A DNA stretch of 64,000 bases from Actinomycetota bacterium (GTDB lineage: Bacteria; Actinomycetota; UBA4738; JACQTL01): assembly GCA_046263085.1 (NCBI GenBank), contig JBHELK010000119.1:18109-82108 (forward strand), in the 5' to 3' direction. Below the pieces are notes generated by a model. It made no database searches, had not been told where the DNA came from, and saw nothing but the letters and a program-made list of their open reading frames with translations. Shown here piece by piece: positions 24,776-49,977 of the stretch. The translations under genes and the position numbers were made by a program. Numbering within the stretch: the stretch's first letter is position 1; the number at the start of each line of letters is the position of its first letter.

Positions 24776-24943
24776 CTCCGATCAGCTCCTTGGTTCGGCG
24801 GTTGGCGGCATCCTACCGAGAGGAGCCAGGCACTCGGTCCCGGGCTCGTCGGAGGCAGCCCCGGGACGGTGCCATGCAGCGATTCCTCGTCGACTGTGAG
24901 CGCGGTCACAGACGGGATGAGTCCTCCTCTCTATTCTCGCGAC

Positions 24944-29730: not shown

Positions 29731-29786
29731 GCCTCTCTGGTTCGCTGCCGGCTTCCCCTTTCCTTCCGGCGCTCGCGACCGTCTGT

Positions 29787-29800
29787 TGTGCAGGTGCACA
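29787..29800. promoter_or_regulatory. Palindromic putative operator, site 1: TGTGCAGGTGCACA
   Basis: Perfect inverted repeat in the divergent intergenic region, 57 nt upstream of the minus-strand gene start at 29730 and 109 nt upstream of the plus-strand gene start at 29909. Confidence 0.6.
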
Positions 29801-29829
29801 GTTCTGCGCCACACGAACACTCGCTGACT

Positions 29830-29843
29830 TGTGCATGTGCACA
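29830..29843. promoter_or_regulatory. Palindromic putative operator, site 2: TGTGCATGTGCACA
   Basis: Second perfect copy lies 43 bp from site 1 in the same divergent promoter region. Confidence 0.6.
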
Positions 29844-29908
29844 GAGGAATGCGCACTTCGCTCCGCGTAGTCCATCTCGAGACATCCATCCGCCATACAG
29901 GAGAGACC

Positions 29909-31597
29909 ATGCGCGCACGTCTGTTCGCCACCCTCGCCGTATCCGTCCTGGCCGCCCTGCTCGCCATCCCGTCAGGGACCGTGTCCGCCAGCAGCTCCGG
30001 GAACGCCGTCGTGTCCTCCACCGGGGACATCCGGTTCGTGGCCAACATCCCCTATCCGGTGGGAACCGACGAGGAGTTCGCCACGTTCAACGTGACGAAG
30101 CTCTCGAACGGCGCCACCGGCGACCCGGTCTGCCAGACGAACCCGGACGGCTCGTGCGCGACCGACGCGGCCGGGAAGATCGTCTACCAGACCGAGGACC
30201 GCGACTTCGCTTTCGTGGGAAGCGAGAGCGTGAACGGGTTCGTCATCGACATCACCGACCCGGAGAACCCCGTCTCTGTGGCGTCCCTGCCCTGCAGGGC
30301 AAGCCAGAACGACATCCAGATCTGGCACAACATCCTGCTGCAGTCCCAGGACGGCACGGGCGGGACGTGCCACAAGCCGTCCGGCGGGACGCAGACCCAG
30401 GTCACGATCGGCTTCTCCGACATCTCCGACCCCCGCAACCCCAGGTTCCTGGGCAAGCTCACCGAGGCGCGCGGCGCCCACAACGCCACGGTGCACCCCA
30501 CCCAGCCCATCGTCTACATCTCAAACTCCGATCTTCCGTCGACGTCCGACGTGATCCACATCTGGGACTTCAGCAACCCGGCCGCGCCGGTCAAGGTCAA
30601 GGACTGGAACCCCACCTCGGGCTCGGTGTTCTCCCCCCACGACATCACGTTCAACGCCTCCGGGACGAGGGCATACGTCGCCTCCGTCGATCACACCGAG
30701 ATCCTCGATAGCACGGACCCGAAGAACCCCACCTTGATCTCCACGATCTACAACGAGGGAGTGTCGATCTCCCACCAGTCCGACCCCACCCCCGACGGCA
30801 AGTTCCTGCTGGTCTCCGACGAGCTGGGAGGCGGCGGCGCACCCACGGTCTCCCCCGGTGGGAGCGTCCACGTCTACGACATCCGCAACGAGCTGCGCCC
30901 GGTGAAGGTGGGACTCATCAACGAGGACCTCACCGGGGCCGGCCACGTGTCCACCGCGCACGTCTTCCGGATCAACCCGGACGGCCGGACCATGGCCATC
31001 GCCTGGTACCAGGACGGAGTGCACGTGTTCGACTTCTCCGACATCCACGGGCCCAACCTGTACGGCTCCGGGAACGCGACCGGCGTGGGGGCGCGGACCA
31101 TCGCCTCGATCCTGATGCAGAACGCCAACACATGGTCCGCCAAGATGTGGCAGGACCGCCACCCCGGCTACGTGTTCGCCAATGACATCAACCGCGGCTT
31201 CGACGTCTTCTACGTGCCGGAGCTCGGCCCCGGCTTCCTCTCCACCGGGACGATCCACGCGCCCATCGCGGACGGCCAGGCGCCCAGCCTCACCGAGATC
31301 GAGTTCCAGACCCGCTGCGAGTACTCCCCCGTCTCCCAGGGTCTCGACGGCTACGTGTTCGACCTTCGCGGAACCGGTGACGGCAACCACACCAACTCGG
31401 TGAAGGGCACGTCGGCGGCAGCGCACAACCTGGACCTGACCTTCTACGACGCCGCGTGCAAGCTGCTCACCGGCAAGAACCTGACCGCCGGGAACGACCC
31501 GTCGGGGACCATCCCGGCAGGAGCGAAGTACGCGGTGGCCGACCTGGTGGGTGGGGCCCAGACACGCTTCGTGGCCACCACCGCGGTGGCCGCCTAG
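29909..31597 (+). CDS. Secreted beta-propeller protein (LVIVD-like repeats)
   Basis: Start at MRARLFATLAVSVLAALLAIPSG (signal peptide) with a CAGGAGAGACC RBS. Blades such as FVIDITDPENP, IHIWDFSNPAAP and VHVYDIRNELRP are recognisable. Confidence 0.7.
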   Translation: MRARLFATLAVSVLAALLAIPSGTVSASSSGNAVVSSTGDIRFVANIPYPVGTDEEFATFNVTKLSNGATGDPVCQTNPDGSCATDAAGKIVYQTEDRDFAFVGSESVNGFVIDITDPENPVSVASLPCRASQNDIQIWHNILLQSQDGTGGTCHKPSGGTQTQVTIGFSDISDPRNPRFLGKLTEARGAHNATVHPTQPIVYISNSDLPSTSDVIHIWDFSNPAAPVKVKDWNPTSGSVFSPHDITFNASGTRAYVASVDHTEILDSTDPKNPTLISTIYNEGVSISHQSDPTPDGKFLLVSDELGGGGAPTVSPGGSVHVYDIRNELRPVKVGLINEDLTGAGHVSTAHVFRINPDGRTMAIAWYQDGVHVFDFSDIHGPNLYGSGNATGVGARTIASILMQNANTWSAKMWQDRHPGYVFANDINRGFDVFYVPELGPGFLSTGTIHAPIADGQAPSLTEIEFQTRCEYSPVSQGLDGYVFDLRGTGDGNHTNSVKGTSAAAHNLDLTFYDAACKLLTGKNLTAGNDPSGTIPAGAKYAVADLVGGAQTRFVATTAVAA

Positions 31598-32839
31598 ATG
31601 CGCCGCCGCGTCGCTGCGATCGCCTTCGCCGTCGCCGCTGTCGTGAGCGGCCCCGTCGCGGGCACGACGATCCCGGCCGAAGCGGGAGCCGGACAGTACT
31701 TCGATCTCTCGGCGCTCCCCGGTCCGGACTTCACGGGGGCACAGATCTGGCAGGGCCACCAGGACTTCATCAACGCGCACCCCTACCGTGTGACCGGCAC
31801 GGCGATGGAGGTCGTGACCGGCATGGATCTCCGTGACGACATGAGGGCCCTGGGCTACGACACACACATCCATTCGCTGCCGGCCGACCCGGGCGTCGAC
31901 GCAGGGCCGGGCGTCGCGCTGAAGGCCATCATCGCCACGAAGCGCGGCGTCACGAAGCCCGACGAATGGATCGTGTTCACCGGCCACTACGACAGCGTGC
32001 CGCAGACGATCTACGGCGCGTACGACAACGGCTCCGGCACGAACCTGCTGCGCTACCTGGCCCGGGAGTTCGCGAACGTCCAGACCAACCGCTCCCTCGT
32101 CTTCGTGTGGTTCAACGGCGAGGAGGAGGGCGTGCTGGCGTCGTCCCGGTACGCCAAGGAGCTGAGCGACGCCGGTCAGAAGATCGTGGCCGACCTCGGT
32201 TTCGACATGGAAGGCATCGCCTACCCGGTGGCCAACCCCGGATCCACGAACTGCCTCTGCATGTGGTACGGCGGCAACGACAAGACGGCGTTCGACCCCC
32301 TGCTGCGCTACGTGAACTTCTCGTTCCTCGGTCTCCCGAATTCCAAGAGGCTCGTATCGGTGGAGGGGATCAACAACCGCAACTCCGATGAGTCCTCGTT
32401 TGCCTCGAATGGCTTTCCCACGATGCGATGGGCGGGCATGCGAACGGCCGCGGCCTACCCCGCGTACCACATGTACAACGACACCCTCGACGAGATCGTG
32501 ACCGTGGCGGGCGGTGCGAGCTACGTCGAGCAGGGCATCGAGAACACGATGAAGAGCGCCTATTACACGGCGCTCGCCCTGGACAATCACCTCCCGGTGC
32601 CGGCGGCAACGGCGACCACGAACGGCCTCAGCATCCAGCTCGACGCCACGGGCAGCTCGGACGAGGACGGCACGCTCTCCACGTTCAGCTGGGACTTCGG
32701 CGACGGCACCGCGGGTACGGGCTCCGCCGTGCAACACACGTACGCGGCGGCCGGGACCTACACCGTGACGCTCAGCGTGGCAGACAACCTGTGGCCCACC
32801 GTGACGCAGGGCCTGACCCTGCAGGTGACGGTGGCCTGA
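31598..32839 (+). CDS. Secreted M28 family zinc aminopeptidase with C-terminal PKD domain
   Basis: FTGHYDSV, DNGSGT and NGEEEG are M28 zinc-ligand motifs. A C-terminal PKD-like segment (FSWDFGDGTAGTGSAVQHTYAAAGTYTVTLSV) follows. The ATG immediately follows the upstream TAG stop. Confidence 0.8.
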   Translation: MRRRVAAIAFAVAAVVSGPVAGTTIPAEAGAGQYFDLSALPGPDFTGAQIWQGHQDFINAHPYRVTGTAMEVVTGMDLRDDMRALGYDTHIHSLPADPGVDAGPGVALKAIIATKRGVTKPDEWIVFTGHYDSVPQTIYGAYDNGSGTNLLRYLAREFANVQTNRSLVFVWFNGEEEGVLASSRYAKELSDAGQKIVADLGFDMEGIAYPVANPGSTNCLCMWYGGNDKTAFDPLLRYVNFSFLGLPNSKRLVSVEGINNRNSDESSFASNGFPTMRWAGMRTAAAYPAYHMYNDTLDEIVTVAGGASYVEQGIENTMKSAYYTALALDNHLPVPAATATTNGLSIQLDATGSSDEDGTLSTFSWDFGDGTAGTGSAVQHTYAAAGTYTVTLSVADNLWPTVTQGLTLQVTVA

Positions 32840-32894
32840 CCGGTCCGGCGATCGGTCCAGACCGCCCTCTGATCACGAGGGAGGGAGCCAGGCG

Positions 32895-33818: not shown

Positions 33819-33827
33819 CCAGGAACA

Positions 33828-33843
33828 GAAGGCCTCGGCCTTC
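33828..33843. terminator. Hairpin GAAGGCC-TC-GGCCTTC between convergent genes
   Basis: 7-bp perfect stem read from the sequence. It sits between the oxidoreductase stop (33818) and the minus-strand gene stop (33881). Confidence 0.4.
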
Positions 33844-33880
33844 CGCGAGCCGCGGGCCGCGGGCCGCGGGCCGCGGGCGG
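33843..33880. repeat. Heptanucleotide tandem repeat (CCGCGGG)x4-5
   Basis: CCGCGAG CCGCGGG CCGCGGG CCGCGGG CCGCGGG read directly. It is intergenic, immediately 3' of the minus-strand propeller gene. Confidence 0.7.
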
Positions 33881-35017
33881 TTAACCGCTCGAGGGGATCG
33901 GACCGGTGTACTGGAAGATGTCGAAGCTCCGCTGGTAGTCCGTGGCGTACATGATCCGGTCGGTGATCCAGTAGACCCCTGAGGTCATCCCGCCCGCCGG
34001 CACGTACCAGCCCAGCTCCTCGATCTGGCCGTCGGCCTTCACGTTCAGGATCCGCACACCGTGCTCGTAATACGCCATGGCCACGAGACCGCCATCGCGA
34101 TACGCGGGGTGCGTGTCGAACCAGTGGGCGCACCACTGGGCGACAGGCGGGAACTCACCGTCGGTCGGCGAGCCGCTGCTCAGGCCCCACTCCGCGATCT
34201 TCGTGAACTCGCCCTGTTTGATCATGCGGCCGTTCTCGTCGTACGTCGGCCAACCGTTCGTGGCGTCGAAGGTCCAGAACTTCGCGGCGGGCTTGTTGCA
34301 GTCGCTCGGCACGGTGTTGCCGACCTCACCCCCCACGAGCAGGAACTTGTCGGTCCCCTGGTGCGGCCACAGGTTGCCGTGCGTGAACTTGTTCTGCCGA
34401 GGCCCCTGACCGATCAGCACCGGGTGCTCCGGATCGTCTCGGGCGTCGAGCAGCAGGACCGGATCGGTCGACGTCACGATGATTCCCGGCTTGATCTCGG
34501 TGACGTCGTGCGAGTTGGTCACCGGAGTGCCCGTCGTCCACCGGTGCGTCGACGTCACGGGGTGCGCCGGATCGCGCAGGTCCACGATCACACCGTTCGA
34601 CGCGTACGCCCACGTGCAGTCCAGGACACACGTGATGGTGTGGGACGACCTCCCGTGCGTGGAGATGACCTTCGGGTTGGCCTTGTCGGTGACGTCGATG
34701 ACACTGTCGTCGATCAGCAGGATCTTCCCGTTCGTGTCGACGTCCTCCTGGGCGAACTGCGGCGTCTGCTGGAAGGGAAGGACGCCGGTCAGCTTGGGGT
34801 TCAGCGGATCCTTGATGTCGTAGATCATGAGTGCCGTCGACGTCGTGAGGTAGAACCAGTCGCCCAGGCGCCTGGCGCCAGCTGAGTCGCTGTTCAGCGG
34901 GACGGTCGTCACCCACTCGACGTTCTTGCCGAACCCGACGGCGTCGGCCGTGGGCGCGACCGAGAGTCCGGAGATCGCGAAGATCAGGAGGCACGCCAGA
35001 ACGAGCGCTTTTTTCAA
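33881..35017 (-). CDS. Secreted beta-propeller protein (LVIVD-like)
   Basis: TTG start at 35017, preceded by AGGAGGATCTCGG. This yields the signal peptide (M)KKALVLACLLIFAISGLSVAPTADA. Blades include IYDIKDPLNP, VIDVTDKANP, IVDLRDPAHP and LLDARDDPEHP. Confidence 0.7.
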   Translation of the reverse strand: MKKALVLACLLIFAISGLSVAPTADAVGFGKNVEWVTTVPLNSDSAGARRLGDWFYLTTSTALMIYDIKDPLNPKLTGVLPFQQTPQFAQEDVDTNGKILLIDDSVIDVTDKANPKVISTHGRSSHTITCVLDCTWAYASNGVIVDLRDPAHPVTSTHRWTTGTPVTNSHDVTEIKPGIIVTSTDPVLLLDARDDPEHPVLIGQGPRQNKFTHGNLWPHQGTDKFLLVGGEVGNTVPSDCNKPAAKFWTFDATNGWPTYDENGRMIKQGEFTKIAEWGLSSGSPTDGEFPPVAQWCAHWFDTHPAYRDGGLVAMAYYEHGVRILNVKADGQIEELGWYVPAGGMTSGVYWITDRIMYATDYQRSFDIFQYTGPIPSSG

Positions 35018-35028
35018 CCGAGATCCTC

Positions 35029-36435
35029 CTAGGTGTTCCTGCCGGTGGCGGCCCTGCGGCACAGGTACCGCTCAGCGGCGGCAACAGGGTCGTTGACTCC
35101 GAGTTTGGCCAGCCAGGATGCGCGGAACTGCGCCTTCGACGGCACGAGGTTCTTCGACGGGTCGTACTTCAGGATGTCGACGCCGCGCTCGTAGTCGACC
35201 GAGTAGATGTAGTTCTTGTCGATCCAGTACGCAGACGACGTGGAGCCCACGACGGGCTGGAAGAACCCCAGCTGCTTGATCTTCCCGGTCTTGCCGTCGA
35301 CGTCGAAGATGCGTGTGCCGTGCTCGTACCATCCGTTCGCGGTGACGATGTGGTCGTGGGTGCTGTTGTCGGAGCTGATGTCGAACCAGTGTCCGGAGCA
35401 TCCCAGGCCGTTCACCTCGGGGTTGCCGTCCTGGTAGTTGCCCTGGACGGGGCGGAAGACGTCGATCGGCTTGAACGGCTTGGCTCCGGGCTGATCGAAG
35501 TCGCGCAAGGAGTAGGTGGTGAACGGACCGCTCCCCGAGTTGCACGAAGGCGAGAAGTTCGTCTCGCCCTCGCCGAGCAGCAGCTCGCCGGGCCGGAGGT
35601 TCGGATCGGCCTTGTCCTCGTCGGTGATCCGCGGCTTGTACTCGGCCGCGTAGGGCCGGAGGTTGTTGTGCTGGTAGGCCGTCTTCTTGACGCCCATCTG
35701 CGAGGCGTCGCTGTGCGCCACCTCAACCGGTTGAGCCGGATCCGAAACGTTCAGCGCGTAGATCGGCGTCGTGTCGGTCCAGATGAGTCCGGTGGCGTCG
35801 CGGGTCACGTGATGACCGGTGCGGCCGCCGGCGGCGCTCTTCCACTCCCCCACGTACGTCGGGTTGGCCTTGTCGCGGAGGTCGTAGATCTTGCCCTCCG
35901 ACCCGTAGGCCCAGTCGCACGTCGGGCTCGCGTCGACGCACTCGATCGTGTGGTTACCCTGGTGCGCCGTCTCCTTCCCCTCGACCGTCAGGCTCACGAG
36001 CCCGCCGGGCAGGTCCTGCACGTGGATGACGATGAGATAGAGGATCCCCTCGAAGTCGCTCATCAGGACCCAATGGCCGTCGGCGGAGACCGCCACGTCC
36101 TCGTTCTCCCAGTTGTGGGTGTAGAGCGCGCCCATCAGCAGCGGAACGGCCGGGTTCGTCACGTTGTAGACGCTCAGGCCCTTCGCCGAGCTCACGTACA
36201 GGCGCTTCACGGCGCCGACCTGGACCACCCGCGCGCTGACCCCGGGGGATTCGTTGGCCAGCGTCGCCACGTAGCTGATGTTCGGCGACATGAAGCCGCC
36301 CGGGCCCGGGTCGATGTAGGTCAGGGGAGCCGGCTGGGCGCCCGCGGGACTCAGGGGACCGGCCTGCGTGGACGGCCCTGCGACCACGCCGAACAGGACA
36401 AGAGCGGGGATCAGCGCGAGTGCGCGTCGCAGCAC
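35029..36435 (-). CDS. Secreted beta-propeller protein (LVIVD-like)
   Basis: GTG start at 36435, preceded by AAGGAGGA. This yields the signal peptide (M)LRRALALIPALVLFGVVAGPSTQA. Blades include VYNVTNPAVP, IYDLRDKANP and LNVSDPAQP. The gene is 12 nt upstream of the next propeller gene and is operonic with it. Confidence 0.7.
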   Translation of the reverse strand: MLRRALALIPALVLFGVVAGPSTQAGPLSPAGAQPAPLTYIDPGPGGFMSPNISYVATLANESPGVSARVVQVGAVKRLYVSSAKGLSVYNVTNPAVPLLMGALYTHNWENEDVAVSADGHWVLMSDFEGILYLIVIHVQDLPGGLVSLTVEGKETAHQGNHTIECVDASPTCDWAYGSEGKIYDLRDKANPTYVGEWKSAAGGRTGHHVTRDATGLIWTDTTPIYALNVSDPAQPVEVAHSDASQMGVKKTAYQHNNLRPYAAEYKPRITDEDKADPNLRPGELLLGEGETNFSPSCNSGSGPFTTYSLRDFDQPGAKPFKPIDVFRPVQGNYQDGNPEVNGLGCSGHWFDISSDNSTHDHIVTANGWYEHGTRIFDVDGKTGKIKQLGFFQPVVGSTSSAYWIDKNYIYSVDYERGVDILKYDPSKNLVPSKAQFRASWLAKLGVNDPVAAAERYLCRRAATGRNT

Positions 36436-36521
36436 GGGAGTCCTCCTTGTTCGATGTCGATGAAGCTTCTGAGGGGCTGACCTATCGATTCGCAGGTGCG
36501 GGGCCGAATCCTCCCTGCCAT

Positions 36522-38609
36522 CTAGGAGGGCCCCACGGACGAGAAGCCGCAGCTCGTGCCGAAGCAAGCCCGGGCGAAGACCACGGAACCGGAGGGAACC
36601 GCGCCCACGGCGCCGGTGAAGGATCCGTCGGCGGCAACGACCGCCGGGGTGCTGTAGCTCACCTGAGCGGGATCCGTCCCGGCCGGCGCCACGCCGAGGC
36701 TGACGGTGCGGTCTGGGATGGCGTACGAGGTCCAGGTGGCGCCGTCGGCCATGTTGCCGACCGTCTGCCCGCCGACCGTCGTCCCGAAGCTCGTCACGCC
36801 CGCGCTGTATGCGGCGTAGATCGAGGGGGTGGTGACCCCGGTGGTCTGGGTCGTGGAGATCACCGCCCCGGGCTTGATGTCCGGGGCGAAGGACGCGCCG
36901 ATCGGGACGCGCACGGTGATGGTGTTCGAGGCGGTGTCGAACGAGCCGTCGAGCCACGCGAGGTGGGAACAGTTGTTGACGGCGACGAGGGTTGCGCAGT
37001 TGCCGCGGAGCCGGAACGACCGGCCGGCGTGGGTGACGGCTCCCTCGGGGTCGTCCACCGTGCCGGTGCTGCCGACGTTCGAGAGCTTCGCCTGCACCTG
37101 GTACTGCTTGCCGTTCACGAGGAACGCCCACGTGTACACGAATGTCTCCGGCGCCGTCGCCGGCACCGTCGGGTCCGGACCCGGCAGCTTGCTCACCTTC
37201 CAACGGAACTGGAGGTACGGGAGTTGGGCCTCCGGCTGGGAAACGCTCGCCTCGGTGAGGTCCGTACCGTCCTGCGCCCCAGTGGTGGGCTCGAGGGCGC
37301 CGTCGCCTGCGGGGTCGGTTGCCGCCACCACCGGCGCGGTCTCGCCGGCGAACCCGGCGGTCCCGCTCACATTCCCCGCGGCCGATGCGACGAGCGAGGT
37401 GACGCCGTTGGCGGCTGCCGGATCGCGGGGCAGGGGCCCGTTCCACTTCAGGACGTCGAACCCTCGCGTGTAGTCGACCACGTAGACCACGCGGTCCGTG
37501 ACCCAGTGCGCCGCGGACGCCCAGCTGGCGAAGGACTGGAAGAACCCCACGTTGGTGAGCTTGCCGTTCCCGTTCACGTAGAAGAACCGGGTTCCGTGGT
37601 CGTAGTACGCCTGCGCGAAGATCCCGCCGTTGTGGAAGGACGGGCTCGCCTCGAGCCAGTGCGCAGAGCACCCGGCGCCGTCCGCGGGGGTGTTCCCGTC
37701 GAGCATGTAGCCGTTCCTGGTCTGCCACCGGTCGGCCCTGCTGTACGTGCCGCCCTGCCAGCCGGTCATGTCGTAGACGTACGTCGAACCGTTCCCTGTG
37801 CCGTTGGCGCCGCAGCGCCCCGTCAGGTTGGTTTCCGTTCCCACGAGCATGAACCGGTCGGTGGCCTGGTTCGCCCAGCTCGTAGAGTGCATGTATTCGC
37901 TGGTCTTCTGCCCTGCGCCCATGCACGCGAGCTTCTTGGGATGGGCCGGGTCGGTGGTGTCGAGGATGGCGCCCGGGCAGTTCGCGCCGCTCCCGGAGGA
38001 CACGACGACGATGCCGGGGGCGTCCTCGCGGACGTCGTGGCCCGCGGACACACCGGCGAGGGTTGCCCAGTTCCCGACGAGGGCCGGCTTCGTGGGGTCG
38101 TGGAGATCGATGATGTTGCCGCTCGAGCCGTACAGGTAGGTGCAGTCCGCCACGCAGGTCATGGTGTGCTGCGCCAGGCCCGAGACGGAGGCGACCTCGA
38201 CGGGCTTCGTCTTGTCGGTGACGTCGTAGATGTGCAGGAAGTTCTGTCCCGGGCCCACGATCGGGACGTTCCCGGTCTGCGAGTACACGAGGATCTTGCC
38301 GTTCGTGGCGACGTCCTCGTTCTCGTACTGGCTCGGGACCGGCGTGATGCTCACGAGCTGTGGGTCCTCGGGGTTCGAGGCGTCGTAGATGGAGATGCTC
38401 CGCCAGCTGGTGATGTAGAAGTAATGCCCCACGAGCTTGGCTCCGGTGGCGCCGTACACCTCGAATGGCACGAACCGAACGTGCTCGACCCACGACGACG
38501 CAACGCCCTGCGCCGGCGCGTCCGGCCCCGCCCGCCCGATGCCGGGTGACATCACGGCGACGGTGAGCGAAAGCGACACGACCGTCGCGAGGATCCTGAG
38601 CTTCTTCAT
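36522..38609 (-). CDS. Secreted LVIVD beta-propeller protein with a C-terminal ~300 aa conserved module of unknown function ('ACFGxxCG' module)
   Basis: Signal peptide MKKLRILATVVSLSLTVAV. The N-terminal propeller carries blades ISIYDASNPEDP, LHIYDVTDKTKP, IIDLHDPTKP and ILDTTDPAHP. The C-terminal module reads QYQVQAKLSNV...RLRGNCA...LAWLDGSFD...VRVPIGASFAPDIKPGAV...ARACFGTSCG. Confidence 0.75.
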   Translation of the reverse strand: MKKLRILATVVSLSLTVAVMSPGIGRAGPDAPAQGVASSWVEHVRFVPFEVYGATGAKLVGHYFYITSWRSISIYDASNPEDPQLVSITPVPSQYENEDVATNGKILVYSQTGNVPIVGPGQNFLHIYDVTDKTKPVEVASVSGLAQHTMTCVADCTYLYGSSGNIIDLHDPTKPALVGNWATLAGVSAGHDVREDAPGIVVVSSGSGANCPGAILDTTDPAHPKKLACMGAGQKTSEYMHSTSWANQATDRFMLVGTETNLTGRCGANGTGNGSTYVYDMTGWQGGTYSRADRWQTRNGYMLDGNTPADGAGCSAHWLEASPSFHNGGIFAQAYYDHGTRFFYVNGNGKLTNVGFFQSFASWASAAHWVTDRVVYVVDYTRGFDVLKWNGPLPRDPAAANGVTSLVASAAGNVSGTAGFAGETAPVVAATDPAGDGALEPTTGAQDGTDLTEASVSQPEAQLPYLQFRWKVSKLPGPDPTVPATAPETFVYTWAFLVNGKQYQVQAKLSNVGSTGTVDDPEGAVTHAGRSFRLRGNCATLVAVNNCSHLAWLDGSFDTASNTITVRVPIGASFAPDIKPGAVISTTQTTGVTTPSIYAAYSAGVTSFGTTVGGQTVGNMADGATWTSYAIPDRTVSLGVAPAGTDPAQVSYSTPAVVAADGSFTGAVGAVPSGSVVFARACFGTSCGFSSVGPS

Positions 38610-38628
38610 CTCATGCCTTCCTGTTCGA

Positions 38629-40683: not shown

Positions 40684-40710
40684 CTACGTTTCTCCTGTCG
40701 TCCTGGTCGT

Positions 40711-42279: not shown

Positions 42280-42288
42280 TCTCCGGTC

Positions 42289-43989
42289 TTACGTCTGGAC
42301 GGATTGGGTGACGCTGGCCTGCTGGAACGTGTCGTCGCCCGTCCAGGTCACGGTGACCTGGTGCGACCCGGCGGAGAGTCCGAGGTTCGCCGAGAACGTG
42401 CCGTCGTCGGCGGTCGTGGCCATCACGGTGACGCCGCCGCCCGTGACCTCCACGCTCCGTCCGGCGAGGGACTTGTTGACCCATCCCTGGTACGTGAGGA
42501 CGGCGTAACGATCGAGCTTGCCGGTGGCCACGCCTCCGGGCGCGGCAGGATCGACAGCGAGGCGCGCAAGTTTCTTCGGCAGCGGCCCCGTGTACTTCAG
42601 GATGTCGAACCCCCGTACGAGCCCGTTCGTGAAGACGTAGCGACCCGTGTCCGGATCGGCGGCGGAAGCGTCGAACGGCCACCACTGCGACGCGTTCACG
42701 AAGTCGCCCTCGGCGAGGAAGTTGCCCGTGGTGTTGCCCCAGGTGGTGGGCCCGAGCCCCCGGACGGCGCTGCACGGAGGGGTGACCTCCGGGCGGCAGG
42801 TCCAATCCCGCTTGGGGTTTCTATTCCATTCGGTATAGAGACCACCGCTCGACTTCGTGGCGGCAGTCGGATCGCCCACCCAGCTTCCGAGCGTGTAAAC
42901 ACCGGCGGTGAAGATCATCCGCTCGGCCTGGAACTGCCAGCTGTGGGTCGTGCAGCTGGCCCAGTTCGGATGGTTCGAATCCGGGTCGGGATCAGTGGAC
43001 TCGATCGTGTTGAAAGGCGCGAACCACTTCCCCATCTTGATCGGGTTCGTGAGACTCGCCCCGGGCATGTACTTCCCGCTGATGTCCCAGAAGTGGATTC
43101 CTCCACCCGGGCACTGGAAGTACGTGTAGCCGGTCGCGGGCCCGATCCGATAGTCGGTGACGCCGATGAACGAGGAATCCGCGGATGGATAGACCTCGTG
43201 GGCGAGGCTGATCTCCGGATCTTGCTTCTGGACGATGACGACCGGATGGGCCGGATCCGTGGTGTCGAGGATCCCCCACTTGGCGGGCTGCGCGCAGAAG
43301 CCGACGTAGGTCCGGCCCGGGATGTTCGGATCGGGATAGAACTCGTGGCCGCAGAGGTTGTTCAAGCCCGCGTCTGCGAGCTTCGGCTTCGCCGGGTCGG
43401 CCACGTCGATGATGTGCGTGGGAAGGGTGGTGTACAGGTATCGGTCGTCGATCCACCGGATGGTGTGCGGCCCGTTCGAGTCGCCCTGCCCCAGAGCCGC
43501 CACCTGGCCGCGGTACACCGGATTCGTGACGTCGGAGATGTCGACGATGTCGACGCCGTTCGAGCCCCCGTGGCCGAGGTTCGGGTCGGTCGGAGGCCAC
43601 GCGGATCTGCCCGGTGCCTCGATGGAGTACGCCACGAGCTTGCGGGTGGGATTCACCGAGACCCACGAGTGGTAGTTGAAGCCCACCGTCACGTAGCGGC
43701 CCACGGTCGAAGGCTCAGCCGGGTCGGTGATGTCGATGATGTCGAACCCGAAGTTGTGAGCGACCACGGCGTACCGGGAAAGCGAGCCGTTCGACTCCTG
43801 CCGCTCGAAGAAGTCGAGCGCGTTGCCGCCCGAGCTGACCTGGTTGTTGACCCAGGTCACGTTCTTCGAGCTCACGATGCCCTCGGCGGGAAGACCGGCC
43901 GGCTGTGCGCCGGCGGGGATCGCCGCCGTGCCGCCGAGCATGGCGGCGGCGAGCGCCGCGACCCCCAGCTTGCGCACCGAGCCCGTCAT
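42289..43989 (-). CDS. Secreted LVIVD beta-propeller protein with C-terminal Ig-like domain (tandem paralog of 40711-42279)
   Basis: Start trimmed to MTGSVRKLGVAALAAAMLGGTAAIPAGA (signal peptide). The protein is collinear with its paralog (FDIIDITDPAEP, VDIVDISDVTNP, IHFWDISGK). The ATG overlaps the upstream stop in an ATGA arrangement. Confidence 0.75.
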   Translation of the reverse strand: MTGSVRKLGVAALAAAMLGGTAAIPAGAQPAGLPAEGIVSSKNVTWVNNQVSSGGNALDFFERQESNGSLSRYAVVAHNFGFDIIDITDPAEPSTVGRYVTVGFNYHSWVSVNPTRKLVAYSIEAPGRSAWPPTDPNLGHGGSNGVDIVDISDVTNPVYRGQVAALGQGDSNGPHTIRWIDDRYLYTTLPTHIIDVADPAKPKLADAGLNNLCGHEFYPDPNIPGRTYVGFCAQPAKWGILDTTDPAHPVVIVQKQDPEISLAHEVYPSADSSFIGVTDYRIGPATGYTYFQCPGGGIHFWDISGKYMPGASLTNPIKMGKWFAPFNTIESTDPDPDSNHPNWASCTTHSWQFQAERMIFTAGVYTLGSWVGDPTAATKSSGGLYTEWNRNPKRDWTCRPEVTPPCSAVRGLGPTTWGNTTGNFLAEGDFVNASQWWPFDASAADPDTGRYVFTNGLVRGFDILKYTGPLPKKLARLAVDPAAPGGVATGKLDRYAVLTYQGWVNKSLAGRSVEVTGGGVTVMATTADDGTFSANLGLSAGSHQVTVTWTGDDTFQQASVTQSVQT

Positions 43990-45764
43990 CGGTCCGCCGG
44001 AGCCACGATCACGGATCCCTGCATAGACGTGTCGGTCGCCGACGACGTCGACGTATAGACCCACGTGCCGGACTCGTCCTCGAAATCAGCGGAGTGCGAC
44101 TTGCGCGGCGGAATGTCGCCGTTGGAGTTGATCTCGTCCCCCGGGAGGATGACCGAGCCCTCGGTCGTGACGACCACGGCCCGCTCTGCCGTTACGTTGT
44201 GGGGGACGGTGTCCTCGTTCACCCACAGGACCTTGACGTCGCGCGGGATCGTGATGACCTGCGGCACGAACTGACCGTCGATGATCTCCACGGTGTACGT
44301 GTCCGGCGTGTCCTGGACGAACGTGACCCGATAGACCGAGCCGTGGAAATCGGCGACGTACATGGCGCCGTCCGGTCCGAACACCACGTCGATGGGGGCG
44401 CCGCCCGTCATGAACGCCCGGGTCCAGGCCACGGTGCCGTCCTCGTTGAAGTGGACCTGTTGGATCTTGTGGCCGCTCGGCTCGGGAGGAACGGCGTTCG
44501 TGTTCCAGATGCTGCCCCACTCGGCCACGAAGAGGTCGCCGTCGTAGCGCTCCGGGAAGTCGTCGCCGCGCTCGAACGCGAGGCCGGACGTCCCGCTGTG
44601 CGCGCTGAGGAACTTGACGGGGCGCAGGATGTGGTCGATCGGAGTCCGAGGCGGAGCCGCTGGGCAGTGGCCGAACTTGGCGATCGTCGCCTCGTTCAGG
44701 TTGTCGTCCGGGTCGTAGATCTCGGGGTGCTCATGGCCACCCGACGGCTGCGGCCAGGCGTTGACGTGCTGGCCGTAGAGGCAGGACGGGAACCCCGCGT
44801 CGTCGATGACCGGGCCATAGATCGGGTTGCCCTGTGGGTCGGTACCGACGACGTGCTGGTCACAGATGTTGGTTCGGTACAGGGGCTCGTTGGAGGCGGG
44901 GTTGTCCGAGCCGTTCATCGGCGTGTAGAGCGAGCAGGGATCGCCGGGCTGGGTGTCGACGTCGTAGATGTTGCGGAAGCCCCGGGCGGCGAGGACCTCG
45001 TCGTCGTCCAGAACGCCGGGGTCGTCGTAGCCGTTGGCGTCGACGGTGACGTCCTTCAGCAGGTCGACGTCGCGCCACGCGGGATTGACGCGCAGGATCG
45101 ATCCCGTCCAGGGCTGGACCTCCTGGGTCGGGCATGCGAGCGGCGAGGCCGGCTCGGGCCCGCATTCGGTTCCGTCGTCGGTGGCACTGCCCGTCGCGAC
45201 GTACAGCATGCCGTCAGGGCCGAACACCATGCCGTTCGTCTGATGGCGGCCGTTCGGGATGTCCTTGAGGATCGTCGCTCGCGTCTCATACGTGCCGTCG
45301 CCATCCGCGTCGCGCAGCGCGAGGATGCTCCCCTTGTACGCGGTCGTGTCGTTGTCGGAGACGTACATCGTGCCGTCGGGCCCGAAGACCATCCCGATGA
45401 CCTGGCCGAAGCCGTCGGCGACCGGGATCGGAGCCCCGCCCGCCACCACGCCGTCGACCACGTCGAAGGAGTAGACGGCGCCGTTCGAGAGCGCCTGGGG
45501 CCCGTCGCCGGCTGCAACGCCCTGCACCGACGTGACGAAGAGCTTCCCGCCCGGTCCGAACGTGAGGCTGGTGGCGAGATCGCCCGGGGGAAGCTGGGCG
45601 AAGGTGGAGACGCCGAACCCGACCGGCGGAACGAGGGCCCCGGCCAGCTCGACGGGATCGTGGGCCTGGGCCGGTGCCTGGACGAGACCGGGACCGGCGA
45701 GGGTCACGAGGATCACGATCGCTCGGGCGAGTCCGCGAAACCGCGTGCGTCCGTTCCCCTTCAC
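43986..45764 (-). CDS. Secreted soluble glucose/sorbosone dehydrogenase-like (SGDH/PQQ-dependent-like) beta-propeller protein with C-terminal cupredoxin-like domain
   Basis: GTG start at 45764, preceded by GGGAGGAG. Signal peptide (M)KGNGRTRFRGLARAIVILVTLAGPGLVQAPAQA. Repeated GMVFGPDGTMYVSDND / GMVFGPDGMLYVATGS / VVFGPDGAMYVADFHG blades are typical of the GSDH family. The C-terminal ~110 aa have a plastocyanin-like pattern (VPHNVTA...), but the Cys ligand appears to be replaced. Confidence 0.7.
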   Translation of the reverse strand: MKGNGRTRFRGLARAIVILVTLAGPGLVQAPAQAHDPVELAGALVPPVGFGVSTFAQLPPGDLATSLTFGPGGKLFVTSVQGVAAGDGPQALSNGAVYSFDVVDGVVAGGAPIPVADGFGQVIGMVFGPDGTMYVSDNDTTAYKGSILALRDADGDGTYETRATILKDIPNGRHQTNGMVFGPDGMLYVATGSATDDGTECGPEPASPLACPTQEVQPWTGSILRVNPAWRDVDLLKDVTVDANGYDDPGVLDDDEVLAARGFRNIYDVDTQPGDPCSLYTPMNGSDNPASNEPLYRTNICDQHVVGTDPQGNPIYGPVIDDAGFPSCLYGQHVNAWPQPSGGHEHPEIYDPDDNLNEATIAKFGHCPAAPPRTPIDHILRPVKFLSAHSGTSGLAFERGDDFPERYDGDLFVAEWGSIWNTNAVPPEPSGHKIQQVHFNEDGTVAWTRAFMTGGAPIDVVFGPDGAMYVADFHGSVYRVTFVQDTPDTYTVEIIDGQFVPQVITIPRDVKVLWVNEDTVPHNVTAERAVVVTTEGSVILPGDEINSNGDIPPRKSHSADFEDESGTWVYTSTSSATDTSMQGSVIVAPADR

Positions 45765-45829
45765 GACGGGCTCCTCCCAAAGACACGACCGTCCCGGGGA
45801 CCTTTCGAGGGGAACGGGCCGGCTACCTT

Positions 45830-45843
45830 TGTGCAAGTGCACA
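45830..45843. promoter_or_regulatory. Palindromic putative operator, site 3: TGTGCAAGTGCACA (extended form TTGTGCA-AG-TGCACAA)
   Basis: Perfect 16-bp inverted repeat 66 nt upstream of the GTG at 45764. This GTG heads the apparent seven-gene minus-strand operon running 45764 to 33881. Confidence 0.6.
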
Positions 45844-45856
45844 AGCGAGGGCCGGC

Positions 45857-47491
45857 TCAGACCTGGATGGTGGTGACCCTCGTGGCGCAGTTCGCACCGA
45901 AGCAGGCCCTCGCCCACACGTCCCAGGACCCGGGACCGGGCGCGGACAGGACCCCGGCGAAGCGCCCGGTGGAGTCCGCGGTCGTGGTGACGGCGAACAT
46001 CACCTGGCCGAGCGGCGTCCCGGCCGGCGCGATCCCGATCGAGACCTGCCGATCCGGGATCCGGTAGGTGAACGACGTGTCGCTGCCTCCCCACGCCGCC
46101 TGGTCGGCCGTCACCGTTTCGGCACCGGGCGCGATCTGGTACCCGGTCTGGATCGTGGAGAGGTCGCCGGCGGGGCTCTGGTTCCTCGTCAGCACGGCCC
46201 CGGGCACGATCTCGGGCGTGGCGCCGAGCGGCACCTTCACACGGATCGTGTTCGTGGCGACGTCGAAGGAGCCGGTGAGCCAGGCCATGTGCGTACAGGT
46301 GCCGGCGGGGGGGACCGTCGTGTCGATGCACTCCCTGAGCTCGAAGGCATGGCCCGTATTGCCGACTCTGCCCTGAGGATCGGACCGGTCCGTTGCCGAT
46401 AGGTCCGACAGTTTCGCCTGCACCTGGAATTGTTTGCCGCCCGTCCGGAACGGGATCGTGTAGCGAACAGCTTCAGGGAAGCTGCCCGACTCGGGCAATC
46501 CCGTGACGTGCCACTCGAAGAAGACCGAGGGGATGGCGGGATCCGGCTGATAGGCGCTCGCGCCGACCAGGTCGACGCCCGTGTCCTGGGCAGTCTGAGC
46601 GGTGCCGGGCGCGTCACCCGCCGGATCCTGCGCGAGGGATACGGGCGACTCGCCCGCGAACACCGCGCCCCCGGACACGGAGACCTGCGACCCGGATGCG
46701 GTTGCGTTCAGCGAGGGTACCGATGTCGAGGACGACCCAGGCGCAAGGACGCGGACCACGCCGGCATGGCCTCCTCCCCCGGCAGTGCCGTGAACCTTGC
46801 AGTAGTAGAGGTAGACGCCCGGTTTCAGGAAGGTGTGGGAGTACGTCTCTCCCGGCTGCCAGCAGACCTGGGCCGCCGTGGGGCACTGCGGGCTGGAGTC
46901 CCAGGACCCGTCGCTGGCGGTGACGGAGTGCGCCACCTGGCCCGTGTTCCGCCACTCGACGGTGGTTCCCGCCGGTACGGTGAGGTCCTTCGGAGCGAAG
47001 AAGTTGTCTCCGGCGTTCACCTCGATGTCGCCGCCGGACTCCGGCACGGGGGCCGGCCGCGGCAGGATCTGCAGCGAGCCCGTCATGTACGGGTGGATCG
47101 TGCAGATGAACGTGTAGAGCCCTGGGGGCACCTGCTCGACGGGCACCGGGGCGCTCTGACTCACGCCGACGAGGTCGCTGATGAACCAGGGTTGCCCGTC
47201 CGGCCGATGTTCAAGTGACTCGAGGTTGTGAAGGTCACCGTCGAGATTGGTGTGAACCAGGCTGTCCCCCTCGACGATCTGCAGCGGCGGCAAGGGGGCG
47301 ATGTGCGTGTCCCCGGGTACGTACGTGTAGTTGTCGGTGAGGATCTGGTGCGTGGTGGTGTCGCTGCCGGTGGGACTCGAGACGACCGCCGCCGATCCCG
47401 GACCGCCCGCCCAGGCGCGGGCCGACGTCACCGCTCCGGGAACGCCGAGGGCGATCGCGAAGGCAACGACGAGCCGCAACGTCCTCACCAC
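45857..47491 (-). CDS. Secreted protein with two cupredoxin (type-1 blue copper) domains and the C-terminal 'ACFGxxCG' module
   Basis: GTG start at 47491 or 47488, preceded by GGGAGGTG. Signal peptide VVRTLRLVVAFAIALGVPGAVTSARAWA. First cupredoxin: H...YTFICTIHPYM (Cys-His-Met ligand spacing). Second: AHSVT...YLYYCKVHG. The C-terminus (QFQVQAKLSDLS...THMAWLTGSFD...RVKVPLGATPEIVPGAVL...ARACFGANCATRV) is homologous to the module in 36522 and 38629. Confidence 0.7.
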   Translation of the reverse strand: MVRTLRLVVAFAIALGVPGAVTSARAWAGGPGSAAVVSSPTGSDTTTHQILTDNYTYVPGDTHIAPLPPLQIVEGDSLVHTNLDGDLHNLESLEHRPDGQPWFISDLVGVSQSAPVPVEQVPPGLYTFICTIHPYMTGSLQILPRPAPVPESGGDIEVNAGDNFFAPKDLTVPAGTTVEWRNTGQVAHSVTASDGSWDSSPQCPTAAQVCWQPGETYSHTFLKPGVYLYYCKVHGTAGGGGHAGVVRVLAPGSSSTSVPSLNATASGSQVSVSGGAVFAGESPVSLAQDPAGDAPGTAQTAQDTGVDLVGASAYQPDPAIPSVFFEWHVTGLPESGSFPEAVRYTIPFRTGGKQFQVQAKLSDLSATDRSDPQGRVGNTGHAFELRECIDTTVPPAGTCTHMAWLTGSFDVATNTIRVKVPLGATPEIVPGAVLTRNQSPAGDLSTIQTGYQIAPGAETVTADQAAWGGSDTSFTYRIPDRQVSIGIAPAGTPLGQVMFAVTTTADSTGRFAGVLSAPGPGSWDVWARACFGANCATRVTTIQV

Positions 47492-49818
47492 GGGACACCT
47501 CCCTGGATCCTCGGATGCAGGACCACCTTGTTCGGGTCCCACGGGCTCGATCCCCGGCCCTGTTCGAGGATCGTGAAGTGCTCGCCGGTCACCCGTGTCG
47601 CGGTCCCGGTGACCTCGAAGTACGTGTAGGACGCGTTGTTGCCGTCCGTGGTCTCGAGGATGTTGTTCTTCGGGTCCGCGGTGAGCCGCACCACGTAGCG
47701 CCCGTCCCCATTCGCCGCGAAGTTGACGTAGTTGCCGACCCGCTGCCACCGGTAGACGTCCCCCCAGCCGCCCGAGAGCCCCACCATGCTCTGGGACCCG
47801 GACAGGCCGCACCCCGCGACCTTCGAGCTGTCGGTGCGCTGATCGAACGAGTACCAGTTTCCGAAGGACTCGTTCGCAGGGAAGTAGCCGATCTTGCGGC
47901 CCACCCCCGAGGAAGCCAGCGTGCCCGCAGTCGCGTCGGTGACCTTGAAGAGCTCCAGCTTGACGATGTCCTTGACGTGGAGGTGGGCGTGGGTCTCGTG
48001 CCACACCATCTCCCCGGCAGGGCGCGTCTCGAAGGCCGGGGTCTCTCCCGGTCGCTCGACGCACTGGAACGCCGGTCCCGGACCGGCGGTGGTGGCGTTG
48101 CCGTTCCAGTACGCGTCGAACTGACCGTGTCCGACGTTCGATAACCCGAAGGAGAACCGAAGGCAACGCGTGTGGGGGCTGTCCGGGTCCGGGCCATCGG
48201 AGATCAGCTCCTGGGTGGTGTTGTCGCCGAACGTCTCGTCCGGCGAACAGGACGCGGGGTGAACGCCGGCGACGTCGGCCGGGGGGTTCGCCGAGTCCGG
48301 CGCGAAGAAGGGGCCGTTCAGCGGATTCACCGGCGCTGCGAACCCGAGGTCGTACGGCGGGGTCGGCTGGAGGTCCGGGAGCAGCCGGCCGCTCGCGTCC
48401 GGGGCGAAGACGGGGATCTGCGCCTCGAGCTTCGCGCGCATCTGGAACCGGGTGGGGGCGTGCACCGAATACGGGTGCACCAGGATGTCGTAGACGCCCA
48501 CCGGCGGGTTCGCCGTGAAATCCTCCCGGTTGAAGGCGGTGGGATTCGTCGCATCCGTGTGCGCGGGCCCGCTCGGGGGCGTGACCCGGAACGCGAACCC
48601 GTCGCTCCGGGCGGGGACGTCGATGGCGATCCGCAGCCTCGCCGCTCCGGGGGTGTCCACCCTGAGCTTGTAGTCGAAGCATGGGGTGTTGTCGCAGCTC
48701 TGGATGTTGGCGTTGTTGGGCAGGTTGTTGGCGTAGGGGAGCTGGTCGCCGACCTTGCCGCCCGCCCAGAAGACGTAGCTGTCGCTCGCCCGGTCCGTGA
48801 GGCGGAGCGTGGCGACGAGGCCGTCGTCGACCCTCGTGACGCCGCCGAGGCTCCGGATGCCGCAGTTGGCGCCGAAGCAGGCCTTGGCGAAGACGTCGAA
48901 GCTCCCCGGCGCGAACCCGGCCGTGGAGATGGATCCGGAGAACGAGCCGTCGCCGGCGAGCGTCGCCGGGGTCGAGAAGTCGACGCCCGAGGGATCGGTC
49001 CCGGTCGGGCCGATGCCCAGCGTCACCTGCTTGGTCGGGATGGTGAAGGCATAGCTCGCGGACGACGGGTCGCCGAACGAGGCGGTGTCGTTCGCCGCGC
49101 CGACGAAGCCGAGCTGGACGCCGGCCATGATGAGGTTGAGGTCGTCGCTCGTGGCGTTGTTGCGCTCCAGCACCGCGCCGGGAACGAGTTGGGGCGCTGC
49201 GGGCGAGCCCATCGGGACGGAGACCGAGACCGTGGAATAGACGGTGTCGACGGAGCCGGTGAGCCACGCGAGGTGCTGACAGCTGGCGCTACCGGTTCCC
49301 ATGAAGTTCGGCATGCAGTTGCCGAGGAGCTCGTAGGCGCCGTCGATGTGACCGGACCCGCCCTGCGGATCCGTGGCCAGGTTCGAGAACTTGGCCTGAA
49401 CCTGGTACACGGCCTCGCCGGCCTTGAACGGGAAGGTCAGCCGAGTGGCCTCCGGGATCTGCCCGCTTGGCGGGATGCCCGCGAGCTGCCACTGCACGAG
49501 CAGCTGCGGCGTGTCCGGGTCGGGCACGGAGATGTCCGCGCCGATGAGGTCGATGCCGTGCTCGCCGGTGCCGTTGAAGTCACCGACGTTCGGCGTGACC
49601 TGGGCGTCGTTCCCGGGGTCGTCCGCCACCTCGACCGGCCGCTGGCCGCCGAAGACCGCCGACCCCGAGATGGCCATTTCGCCGGAGGTGGGCGTCCCGG
49701 ATACCGCCGTCACCGCGCTCGGTACCGTCGTCTTGTCGCCCGCATCGGCGGACACCGCCATCGCAGGCACGAGTCCCAGCAGCGTGAACGGCACGACGAG
49801 CAGGACGAGCTTCCGCAT
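47485..49818 (-). CDS. Secreted protein: N-terminal 'ACFGxxCG' module fused to a C-terminal domain with a lysyl-oxidase-like His-rich copper motif
   Basis: ATG at 49818 with a GGAGGT RBS. Signal peptide MRKLVLLVVPFTLLGLVPAMAVSADA. The N-terminal half (VYQVQAKFSNLATDP...CQHLAWLTGSVDT...VSVPMGSPAAPQLVPGAVL...FAKACFGANCGI) matches the shared module. The C-terminal half contains MVWHETHAHLHVKD, which resembles the WEWHSCHQHYH copper site of lysyl oxidase. That assignment is tentative. The stop overlaps the downstream start (GTGGTGA). Confidence 0.6.
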   Translation of the reverse strand: MRKLVLLVVPFTLLGLVPAMAVSADAGDKTTVPSAVTAVSGTPTSGEMAISGSAVFGGQRPVEVADDPGNDAQVTPNVGDFNGTGEHGIDLIGADISVPDPDTPQLLVQWQLAGIPPSGQIPEATRLTFPFKAGEAVYQVQAKFSNLATDPQGGSGHIDGAYELLGNCMPNFMGTGSASCQHLAWLTGSVDTVYSTVSVSVPMGSPAAPQLVPGAVLERNNATSDDLNLIMAGVQLGFVGAANDTASFGDPSSASYAFTIPTKQVTLGIGPTGTDPSGVDFSTPATLAGDGSFSGSISTAGFAPGSFDVFAKACFGANCGIRSLGGVTRVDDGLVATLRLTDRASDSYVFWAGGKVGDQLPYANNLPNNANIQSCDNTPCFDYKLRVDTPGAARLRIAIDVPARSDGFAFRVTPPSGPAHTDATNPTAFNREDFTANPPVGVYDILVHPYSVHAPTRFQMRAKLEAQIPVFAPDASGRLLPDLQPTPPYDLGFAAPVNPLNGPFFAPDSANPPADVAGVHPASCSPDETFGDNTTQELISDGPDPDSPHTRCLRFSFGLSNVGHGQFDAYWNGNATTAGPGPAFQCVERPGETPAFETRPAGEMVWHETHAHLHVKDIVKLELFKVTDATAGTLASSGVGRKIGYFPANESFGNWYSFDQRTDSSKVAGCGLSGSQSMVGLSGGWGDVYRWQRVGNYVNFAANGDGRYVVRLTADPKNNILETTDGNNASYTYFEVTGTATRVTGEHFTILEQGRGSSPWDPNKVVLHPRIQGGVPW

Positions 49819-49871
49819 CGGCAAGGACCTCCGGTTGGATGAAGACATTCGACGCGGGCACCCAGCGACCT

Positions 49872-49887
49872 TTGTGCATCGGCACAA
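49872..49887. promoter_or_regulatory. Palindromic putative operator, site 4: TTGTGCA-TC-GGCACAA (one mismatch from the perfect palindrome)
   Basis: Located in the divergent region, 54 nt upstream of the ATG at 49818 (minus strand) and about 90 nt upstream of the S8 protease ATG at 49978. Confidence 0.55.
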
Positions 49888-49977
49888 CGGAAAGAAGGAG
49901 TGCTGCCGGGGCAATCGACGGATGTCCGTGCGCCGCCAGGAGGATTCGGCCCGTCCCTCGCGAAGAAAGTGGAAGAC

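Follow-up and report, generated by a model that had tools for sequence, protein, structure and literature searches.

Rex, a regulator common in Actinomycetota, has an 18-bp operator of the form TTGTGAA-N4-TTCACAA, and the cop box of the CopY/BlaI/MecI family reads TACAnnTGTA. PhaR-type regulators are, to our knowledge, so far known only as a switch for polyhydroxybutyrate (PHB) granule proteins and carbon metabolism; PhaR is a repressor that responds to PHB, which relieves its binding, and its gene is typically autoregulated and adjacent to phasin or polyhydroxyalkanoate (PHA) genes. The PhaR (AniA) boxes of S. meliloti validated by electrophoretic mobility shift assay have the form TTGTGCA-N1-TGCACAA with A/T-rich arms, for example TTATTGTGCACTGCACAAATT, and the alphaproteobacterial PhaR consensus, YGCRNYGCR, also has one central base (PMC12542648). 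Here we describe a palindrome of the form TTGTGCA-N2-TGCACAA in a 64-kb stretch of DNA (hereafter the window; 64,000 nt of contig JBHELK010000119.1, assembly GCA_046263085.1) from an uncultured actinobacterium. Its distribution and conservation make it very probable that the palindrome is the operator of a single transcription factor, homodimeric (or of higher order) and encoded at another place in the genome, that would control an island of genes for secreted proteins.

The window has a G+C content of 69.5%; genes were called from third-position G+C (GC3) and annotated with Pfam and NCBIfam. The island occupies 28234-51561, flanked by icd and gltA, and comprises five transcription units, all of them headed by palindromes whose centres lie 61-99 nt upstream of the start codon. 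The original prediction had placed four sites in three intergenic regions from which the whole island could be driven; both the sites, at 0-1 mismatch to TTGTGCA-N2-TGCACAA, and their placement were recovered:

29786..29801: operator copy 1, TTGTGCAGGTGCACAG; centre 63.5 nt upstream of the ATG of the minus-strand LVIVD gene 28234-29730
29829..29844: operator copy 2, TTGTGCATGTGCACAG; 43 bp from copy 1, centre 72.5 nt upstream of the ATG at 29909
45829..45844: operator copy 3, cCTTTGTGCAAGTGCACAAg, a perfect match; centre 72.5 nt upstream of the GTG at 45764, at the head of a seven-gene minus-strand operon
49872..49887: operator copy 4, cCTTTGTGCATCGGCACAAc; common to two divergent genes, 61.5 nt to the ATG of the lysyl-oxidase-like gene (49818) and 98.5 nt to the ATG of the S8 gene (49978)

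The palindrome itself thus stood, while its proposed length of 16 bp did not: the full motif is a palindrome of 18-22 bp, (C)CTTTGTGCAnnTGCACAAAG(G), with the layout CCTTTGTGCA-NN-TGCACAAAGG. The host regions are 29731-29908 (between divergent genes), 45765-45856 and 49819-49977 (between the divergent lysyl-oxidase-like and S8 genes). About 94% of the window is coding, so the finding of 4/4 sites in intergenic DNA, in three intergenic regions, is in itself improbable by chance. Copy 3 lies 13 nt past the stop of gene 45857-47491 and 64-66 nt upstream of the GTG at 45764, a distance to the start codon that is the same in the orthologous loci L001 and L003 (related loci are designated by L numbers). 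This copy also falls within a longer dyad (AGCCGGCCC ... AGCCGGCCC; window 45815-45858) right after the stop of gene 45857-47491, which folds at -22 kcal/mol and might also block read-through from the upstream unit.

Exact copies of TGTGCANNTGCACA are present at 29787, 29830 and 45830, and none was obtained in 100 dinucleotide shuffles of the window. The 16-mer TTGTGCANNTGCACAA is matched perfectly at 45829 and with one mismatch each at 29786, 29829 and 49872, the expected number being 0.00; a tolerance of up to 3 mismatches brought in just three extra matches (1265, 41304 and 55084), each with 3 mismatches and each within an open reading frame. The hexamer TGTGCA is not over-represented in the window (19 vs 14.8 expected), from which it follows that the signal is the pairing of half-sites. 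A weight matrix trained solely on 10 distinct sites from other genomes returned the four sites as its top 4 in the window, with scores of 28.6, 24.0, 20.1 and 8.0 bits, the fifth match scoring 1.2; the maxima in 20 shuffles had a mean of 2.7 and a top value of 10.3 bits, which makes 29786 the weakest single site. A degenerate fifth copy had also been proposed at 36489-36502 (TTCGCAGGTGCGGG). It carries 5 mismatches at the 12 specified positions and is outside the 15 best matrix matches, and was dismissed as noise.

Absence of the palindrome from orthologous islands would, by the original prediction, have spoken against the finding; the outcome favoured it. Homologues of the first operon gene (DUF7133/cupredoxin, 45-58% identical) were collected with their surroundings from metagenome-assembled genomes (MAGs) and metagenomes, and a perfect TTTGTGCAnnTGCACAAA was found upstream of the DUF7133/cupredoxin orthologues in 11 distinct related loci (L001/L002, L003/L004, L007, L008, L011/L013, L015, L016, L017, L019, L143 and L144), most of which read CCTTTGTGCAnnTGCACAAAGG. 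In all related loci the palindrome has the orthologous S8 gene on one side, and in most of them it lies in a divergent region of about 120 nt shared by this gene and the DUF7133 unit; its centre is about 72-82 nt away from the start codon, in agreement with the window. An alignment of eight sequences of this S8-DUF7133 intergenic region has 17 invariant columns, 15 of which belong to the palindrome; it is the sole invariant block, and its two central bases vary. Throughout about 170 kb of related DNA every copy at 0-1 mismatch is intergenic, with a frequency of about one copy per 20 kb and always at the orthologous promoter. The orthologue of gene 29909 in L145 lies inside an operon whose start falls off the contig.

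An exact scan of a genome collection for TTTGTGCANNTGCACAAA yielded at least 120 stretches, mostly from unrelated taxa, no genome being covered completely. Within the same kind of MAG, at least two sites were found in GCA_964551945.1, at L003 and at L078 (LVIVD gene), and in GCA_050693165.1, at L143 and at L088, where the site precedes a BNR-propeller/S15-peptidase gene pair by 67 nt. The site in L032 is located before a gene for an FG-GAP repeat protein and that in L114 before one for a signal-peptide protein, so that the targets of these four further MAG sites (L078, L088, L032 and L114) are all secreted and none is a regulator. At the L078 site (6305-6322) the palindrome centre coincides with the ATG of a secreted LVIVD protein (MCTKRSLTVLL...), and no Shine-Dalgarno sequence is found upstream of that ATG; the transcript may be leaderless, with the operator lying over +1. 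A Singulisphaera MAG (L130) carries TTTGTGCATATGCACAAA at 743, 1497 and 3841, three identical copies in a 3.1-kb stretch; they precede genes for small proteins whose function is unknown, and one of these has a DUF4282 domain.

Translations of the island genes revealed an N-terminal signal peptide on every product. The genes under the four operator copies are as follows:

28234..29730, minus strand: secreted LVIVD-repeat propeller (Pfam LVIVD; signal peptide), target of copy 1
29909..32839, plus strand: two-gene unit, target of copy 2
29909-31597, plus strand: first gene of this unit, secreted 'choice-of-anchor B'/LVIVD-like propeller
31598-32839, plus strand: second gene of this unit, M28 peptidase with PKD domain
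33881..45764, minus strand: seven-gene unit with copy 3 at its head, delimited by GC3 frames, Pfam and paralogy
43986-45764, minus strand: first gene of the seven-gene unit, DUF7133/GSDH-like protein with cupredoxin
42289-44064, 40711-42279, 38629-40683, 36522-38609, 35029-36438 and 33881-35062, minus strand: six paralogous secreted propellers, the rest of the seven-gene unit
45857..49818, minus strand: two-gene unit with copy 4 at its head
47485-49818, minus strand: protein with a shared-domain N-terminus and a lysyl-oxidase-like C-terminus, carrying WHETHAHLH
45857-47491 (start approximate), minus strand: cupredoxin protein with the shared C-terminal domain
49978..51561, plus strand: secreted S8 subtilase, divergent from the copy 4 unit

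The shared domain, of about 290 residues, is common to four island proteins at 34-42% identity, is apparently all-beta and ends in ACFG(A/T)(N/S)CG. It is encoded on the minus strand at 36525-37418, 38632-39483, 45860-46750 and 48844-49755, and is C-terminal in three of the proteins and N-terminal in the lysyl-oxidase-like one. No relative of this domain was found in Pfam or the PDB, and its AlphaFold model was too poor for a fold search (predicted local distance difference test score of 58). The sequence WHETHAHLH in the C-terminal region of 47485-49818 conforms to WHxxHxHxH, the copper-site pattern of lysyl oxidases; the Pfam Lysyl_oxidase match of this protein is under the cut-off (E = 0.003). 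PDB sequence searches with the lysyl-oxidase-like protein and one propeller gave no matches. The wider flanks of the island hold housekeeping genes (mdh, pgi, sucCD, purNH, folD, metF and pyrD), among which, left of the island, a large GGDEF-GAF-GAF-HD(-GYP) signalling protein is encoded at 15106-18204 on the minus strand.

In related genomes a gene for a CopC/CopD fusion, the domain pair also found in B. subtilis YcnJ, lies directly beside the S8-DUF7133-LVIVD unit. It is preceded by genes for two small proteins without Pfam match and is duplicated in L144. No palindrome copy was found in the CopC/CopD operons of the related loci, which are located as follows:

L001 5023-8286: CopC/CopD locus
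L003 5028-8285: CopC/CopD locus
L143 2806-6081: CopC/CopD locus
L144 1740-8176: CopC/CopD locus
L015 756-4020: CopC/CopD locus

Four features of the palindrome point to the operator of a symmetric protein: it is invariant without compensatory changes, its central bases are free, its placement is strictly intergenic, and both arms are complete. The arms are complete even where just one flanking gene could use the site (45829, L032, L088 and L114), which argues for a symmetric dimer and against a promoter element that works to one side. We infer from these features that the palindrome would be bound by protein, through half-sites of about 10 bp (CCTTTGTGCA) separated by two free central bases. 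One such site, or two sites 43 bp apart, located 48-118 nt upstream of start codons, would allow a trans-acting dimer to co-regulate a set of lineage-specific secreted-protein genes, the products of the putative regulon being beta-propellers of the LVIVD, BNR and FG-GAP types, cupredoxin and lysyl-oxidase-like copper proteins, and S8, M28 and S15 peptidases. A regulon under a dimeric factor acting in trans is what had originally been proposed; conservation at orthologues, the intergenic-only copies and the lack of a regulator gene in the island, where Pfam annotation detected none, are all consistent with it. The kind of operator is ordinary, a regulon-defining palindrome; what is new is the lineage, the dark-matter secretome and the possible link to PhaR.

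A repressor appears somewhat likelier than an activator, the slight preference deriving from the variable distances to start codons (48-118 nt) and from the L078 copy over its start codon. As inducing signals, carbon-storage, nutrient or copper status are guesses. A semi-conserved block is found 19-21 nt downstream of several sites, as GGTGAATCCTTCC in the L001 group and as TCGAAT/TCGAAA in the window. In L001 (9955-9978) a second conserved block, GGTGAA(T/A)CCTTCC(GCAGGGCA), lies about 20 nt downstream of the palindrome, with equivalents in L003, L007, L008, L015, L016, L019, L143 and L144; it could be either an atypical -10 element or a further binding site. If the downstream block is a -10 element, the palindrome would be centred near -41, a position compatible both with occlusion of the -35 region and with class-II activation.

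Comparison with other known operators bears out the earlier judgement that the motif matches neither the Rex box nor the cop box, since every site has the N2 centre, the 16-bp core and TGCA inner bases. The outer TTGTG/CACAA pentamers are shared with the Rex operator, but the site is 2 bp shorter, its inner bases are CA/TG instead of AA/TT, and its targets are secreted rather than respiratory or linked to NADH. With the cop box the motif has in common the N2 centre, the CA-NN-TG core and a possible copper context; it differs in having G and not A at position -3 of every site, in a half-site that reaches 6 bp further out, and in the lack of a nearby CopY/BlaI gene. The GTG...CAC distance is 6 nt, not the 8 nt of CRP/FNR sites (TGTGA-N6-TCACA or TTGAT-N4-ATCAA), and the central CG of LacI-type operators is absent. 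The tra box of TraR, a member of the LuxR family, is ATGTGCAGATCTGCACAT and offers a TGTGCA half-site, but with N4 spacing. The box of PrfA, a regulator of the Crp/Fnr type, is TTAACAnnTGTTAA, is located at about -41.5 and governs a secreted-protein regulon; its 6-2-6 geometry and type of regulon are similar to those seen here, whereas its bases are different. Neither regulator family was found here, no test being aimed at either.

The cop box likeness raises the question of whether the palindrome is instead the operator of a copper-responsive winged-helix repressor of the CopY/BlaI type, or of another metal sensor, with a regulon of copper proteins switched by copper supply. The central xxCA-NN-TGxx geometry is that of the cop box, cupredoxin domains and the lysyl-oxidase-like WHxxHxHxH motif occur among the targets, and the S8-DUF7133-LVIVD unit adjoins the CopC/CopD operon in at least six related loci. 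Against this, 19/19 sites have TGCA and none has TACA/TGTA, the loci showed no PF03965 gene, the CopC/CopD operons themselves are without the palindrome, and for many targets (peptidases, BNR and FG-GAP propellers) a connection with copper is not obvious; we regard a copper sensor as improbable, and a CopY/BlaI-like factor as less likely than a regulator of the PhaR family. A role in RNA, as a 9-bp hairpin in the 5' untranslated region or over the start codon that acts as a signal for translation, stability, processing or termination, would account for the stable fold (-22 kcal/mol with flanks, z = -3.4 to -3.9), for the position of the 45829 copy 13 nt past a stop codon within a longer GC-rich dyad, and for the L078 copy covering an ATG. 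The stem is nevertheless invariant, without compensatory changes, across loci whose proteins are 45-58% identical, and the lack of covariation speaks for sequence-specific recognition and not for structure. Divergent gene pairs are moreover served from regions of about 120 nt, where a site is hard to place in both transcripts, and the sites have no T-run and no terminator call, no Rfam family reaching its gathering score anywhere in the window. An RNA element is accordingly very improbable.

Each arm (TGCACAAAGG) might alternatively serve as the -35 element of an alternative sigma factor, for example of the extracytoplasmic function type, paired about 20 nt downstream with a weak block resembling a -10 element, so that the whole would be a bidirectional promoter element. 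The lack of a detectable sigma-70 promoter agrees with such an arrangement, as do the semi-conserved GTGAAT, TCGAAT, TCGAAA and CGAAGT sequences 19-21 nt downstream of the 16-mer at several sites. It is hardly to be believed, given that both arms are perfectly kept where a gene lies on one side only (45829, L032, L088 and L114), that the downstream block is absent at 29786, L011 and L017, and that L032 has a good TTGTTC-N18-TAGGAT promoter further downstream. That the motif is a perfect palindrome confined to intergenic DNA would also be expected of a dispersed repeat (resembling repetitive extragenic palindromes or miniature inverted-repeat transposable elements) or of a recombination site, with no regulatory role. 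Such an origin is next to inconceivable: there are just 4 copies in 64 kb, all in one island and all 5' of genes, the related loci have about one copy per 20 kb at the orthologous promoter with its position relative to the start codons conserved, and no flanking repeat sequence is common to the copies.

For the operator of a dimeric factor, the regulator itself may be sought among families with a similar box. The half-site TTGTGCA/TGCACAA with its A/T-rich arms is identical to that of the best S. meliloti PhaR boxes, and the T-rich-arm form (T)TTGTGCA/TGCACAA(A) is present in 4/4 window sites and in 10 distinct sites from other genomes; like PhaR boxes, the sites are single or paired around promoters. 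The differences are the N2 centre of all 19 actinobacterial sites, as against N1 in the characterised boxes, and the absence of any phasin, PHA synthase or depolymerase gene from the known targets. The exact N2 18-mer was found at four loci in other phyla:

L138 (Isosphaeraceae), 6827-6844: 18-mer between phaR (PF07879 and PF05233 confirmed) and a divergent phasin-like gene
L068 (Phycisphaerae), 4882-4899: 18-mer between phaR and a divergent phasin-like gene
L081 (Chthoniobacterales), 1190-1207: 18-mer abutting phaR
L103 (Myxococcota), 2557-2574: 18-mer upstream of a phaC-like gene

Three phaR genes among the 120 matches listed, in pieces of 8 kb, are far above chance. The N2 boxes at phaR loci of Planctomycetota and Verrucomicrobiota and at the phaC-like locus of Myxococcota suggest that the PhaR operator family includes an N2-spaced variant, and the window motif is indistinguishable from such a variant. 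Since the exact N2 18-mer stands beside phaR genes in other phyla, a PhaR-type protein with a PHB_acc_N DNA-binding domain is put forward, tentatively, as the leading candidate for the regulator. Literature searches for the motif string gave no match except the PhaR paper (PMC12542648). A tblastn search of plasmids and a homologue search seeded with a Chloroflexota PhaR gave, among the named matches, Proteobacteria and Chloroflexota and none from Actinomycetota, those of the homologue search being Chloroflexota, a result that bears neither way on the presence of PhaR in this lineage.

A MarR gene at 23332-23772 encodes the one transcription factor of the window. It has no site upstream and forms part of another minus-strand unit, together with mdh and pgi, and any co-transcription from 29786 is interrupted by an intervening plus-strand gene at about 24850-26119; a role of MarR as the regulator is thus not supported.

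Several results weigh against the operator reading or against its attribution to PhaR. Beyond the MarR gene, no regulator gene was found in the island, in the rest of the window or in the approximately 170 kb of related loci, for which Pfam tables covered the longer loci only. A hidden Markov model search of the window and the related loci for PHB_acc_N (PF07879) found none, and no PHB genes were seen near any actinobacterial site examined. The motif is absent from the more distant orthologous clusters L005, L006, L009, L010 and L012, and is thus confined to one clade. No sigma-70-like promoter was recognised in the three window intergenic regions, so that the placement of the sites relative to a promoter gives no preference between repressor and activator. 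The per-MAG copy numbers from the collection scan are lower bounds, and other regulator families may use the 18-mer, as 6 of the 120 matches listed fall in Eggerthellaceae, where it is enriched. In the distant-clade locus L012, the S8/LVIVD-DUF7133 intergenic region (2962-3150) retains only one half-site-like sequence, CCTGCAACAAAA; the operator has there either decayed or never been acquired.

The contexts in Eggerthellaceae are positions before argCJBD-argR (ArgR confirmed by Pfam), before an operon for an ornithine/arginine decarboxylase and homoserine dehydrogenase, and before a triple-RidA gene, which hints at an amino-acid regulator in that family. The sites are:

L075 1242-1259: Eggerthellaceae site
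L065 3988-4005: Eggerthellaceae site
L079 3529-3546: Eggerthellaceae site
L082 3336-3353: Eggerthellaceae site
L099 1018-1035: Eggerthellaceae site
L128 1090-1107: Eggerthellaceae site

The ARG box is an imperfect palindrome of 18-20 nt, TnTGAAT-wwww-ATTCAnA, usually present as tandem pairs at arg genes (PMC3293853). Our motif resembles it in its length of 18 and in the outer TnTG/CAnA, but has no A/T-rich centre and occurs as single sites. The canonical ARG pattern was absent from L075 at up to 2 mismatches, and no arg genes were found in any related locus, none of these loci being the arg locus of the window's lineage. ArgR is kept, at low weight, as a candidate regulator.

With this palindrome, regulation in an uncultured actinobacterial lineage can be put to the test through a defined element. 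At least 13 genes of the window, and more elsewhere, are linked by it; their products are nearly all of unknown function, and the palindrome marks them as one co-regulated secreted system. Among them are seven paralogous LVIVD-like propellers, the 290-residue domain without relatives and a lysyl-oxidase-like protein. The 22-mer CCTTTGTGCATGTGCACAAAGG can be used as bait in DNA-affinity or DNA affinity purification sequencing experiments, and MAGs can be searched with it to establish the extent of the regulon. The N2 box, which adjoins phaR in Planctomycetota and Verrucomicrobiota and in Myxococcota precedes a phaC-like gene, widens what is known of PhaR operators and supplies a candidate regulator family. 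It is conceivable, if doubtful, that a PhaR-type regulator has been recruited in uncultured soil Actinomycetota to control a large secretome of uncharacterised LVIVD-type propellers, copper proteins (cupredoxin and lysyl-oxidase-like) and peptidases, the N2 box being an undescribed variant of the PhaR operator that spans phyla. If so, the carbon-storage state of these bacteria would be coupled to extracellular nutrient scavenging.

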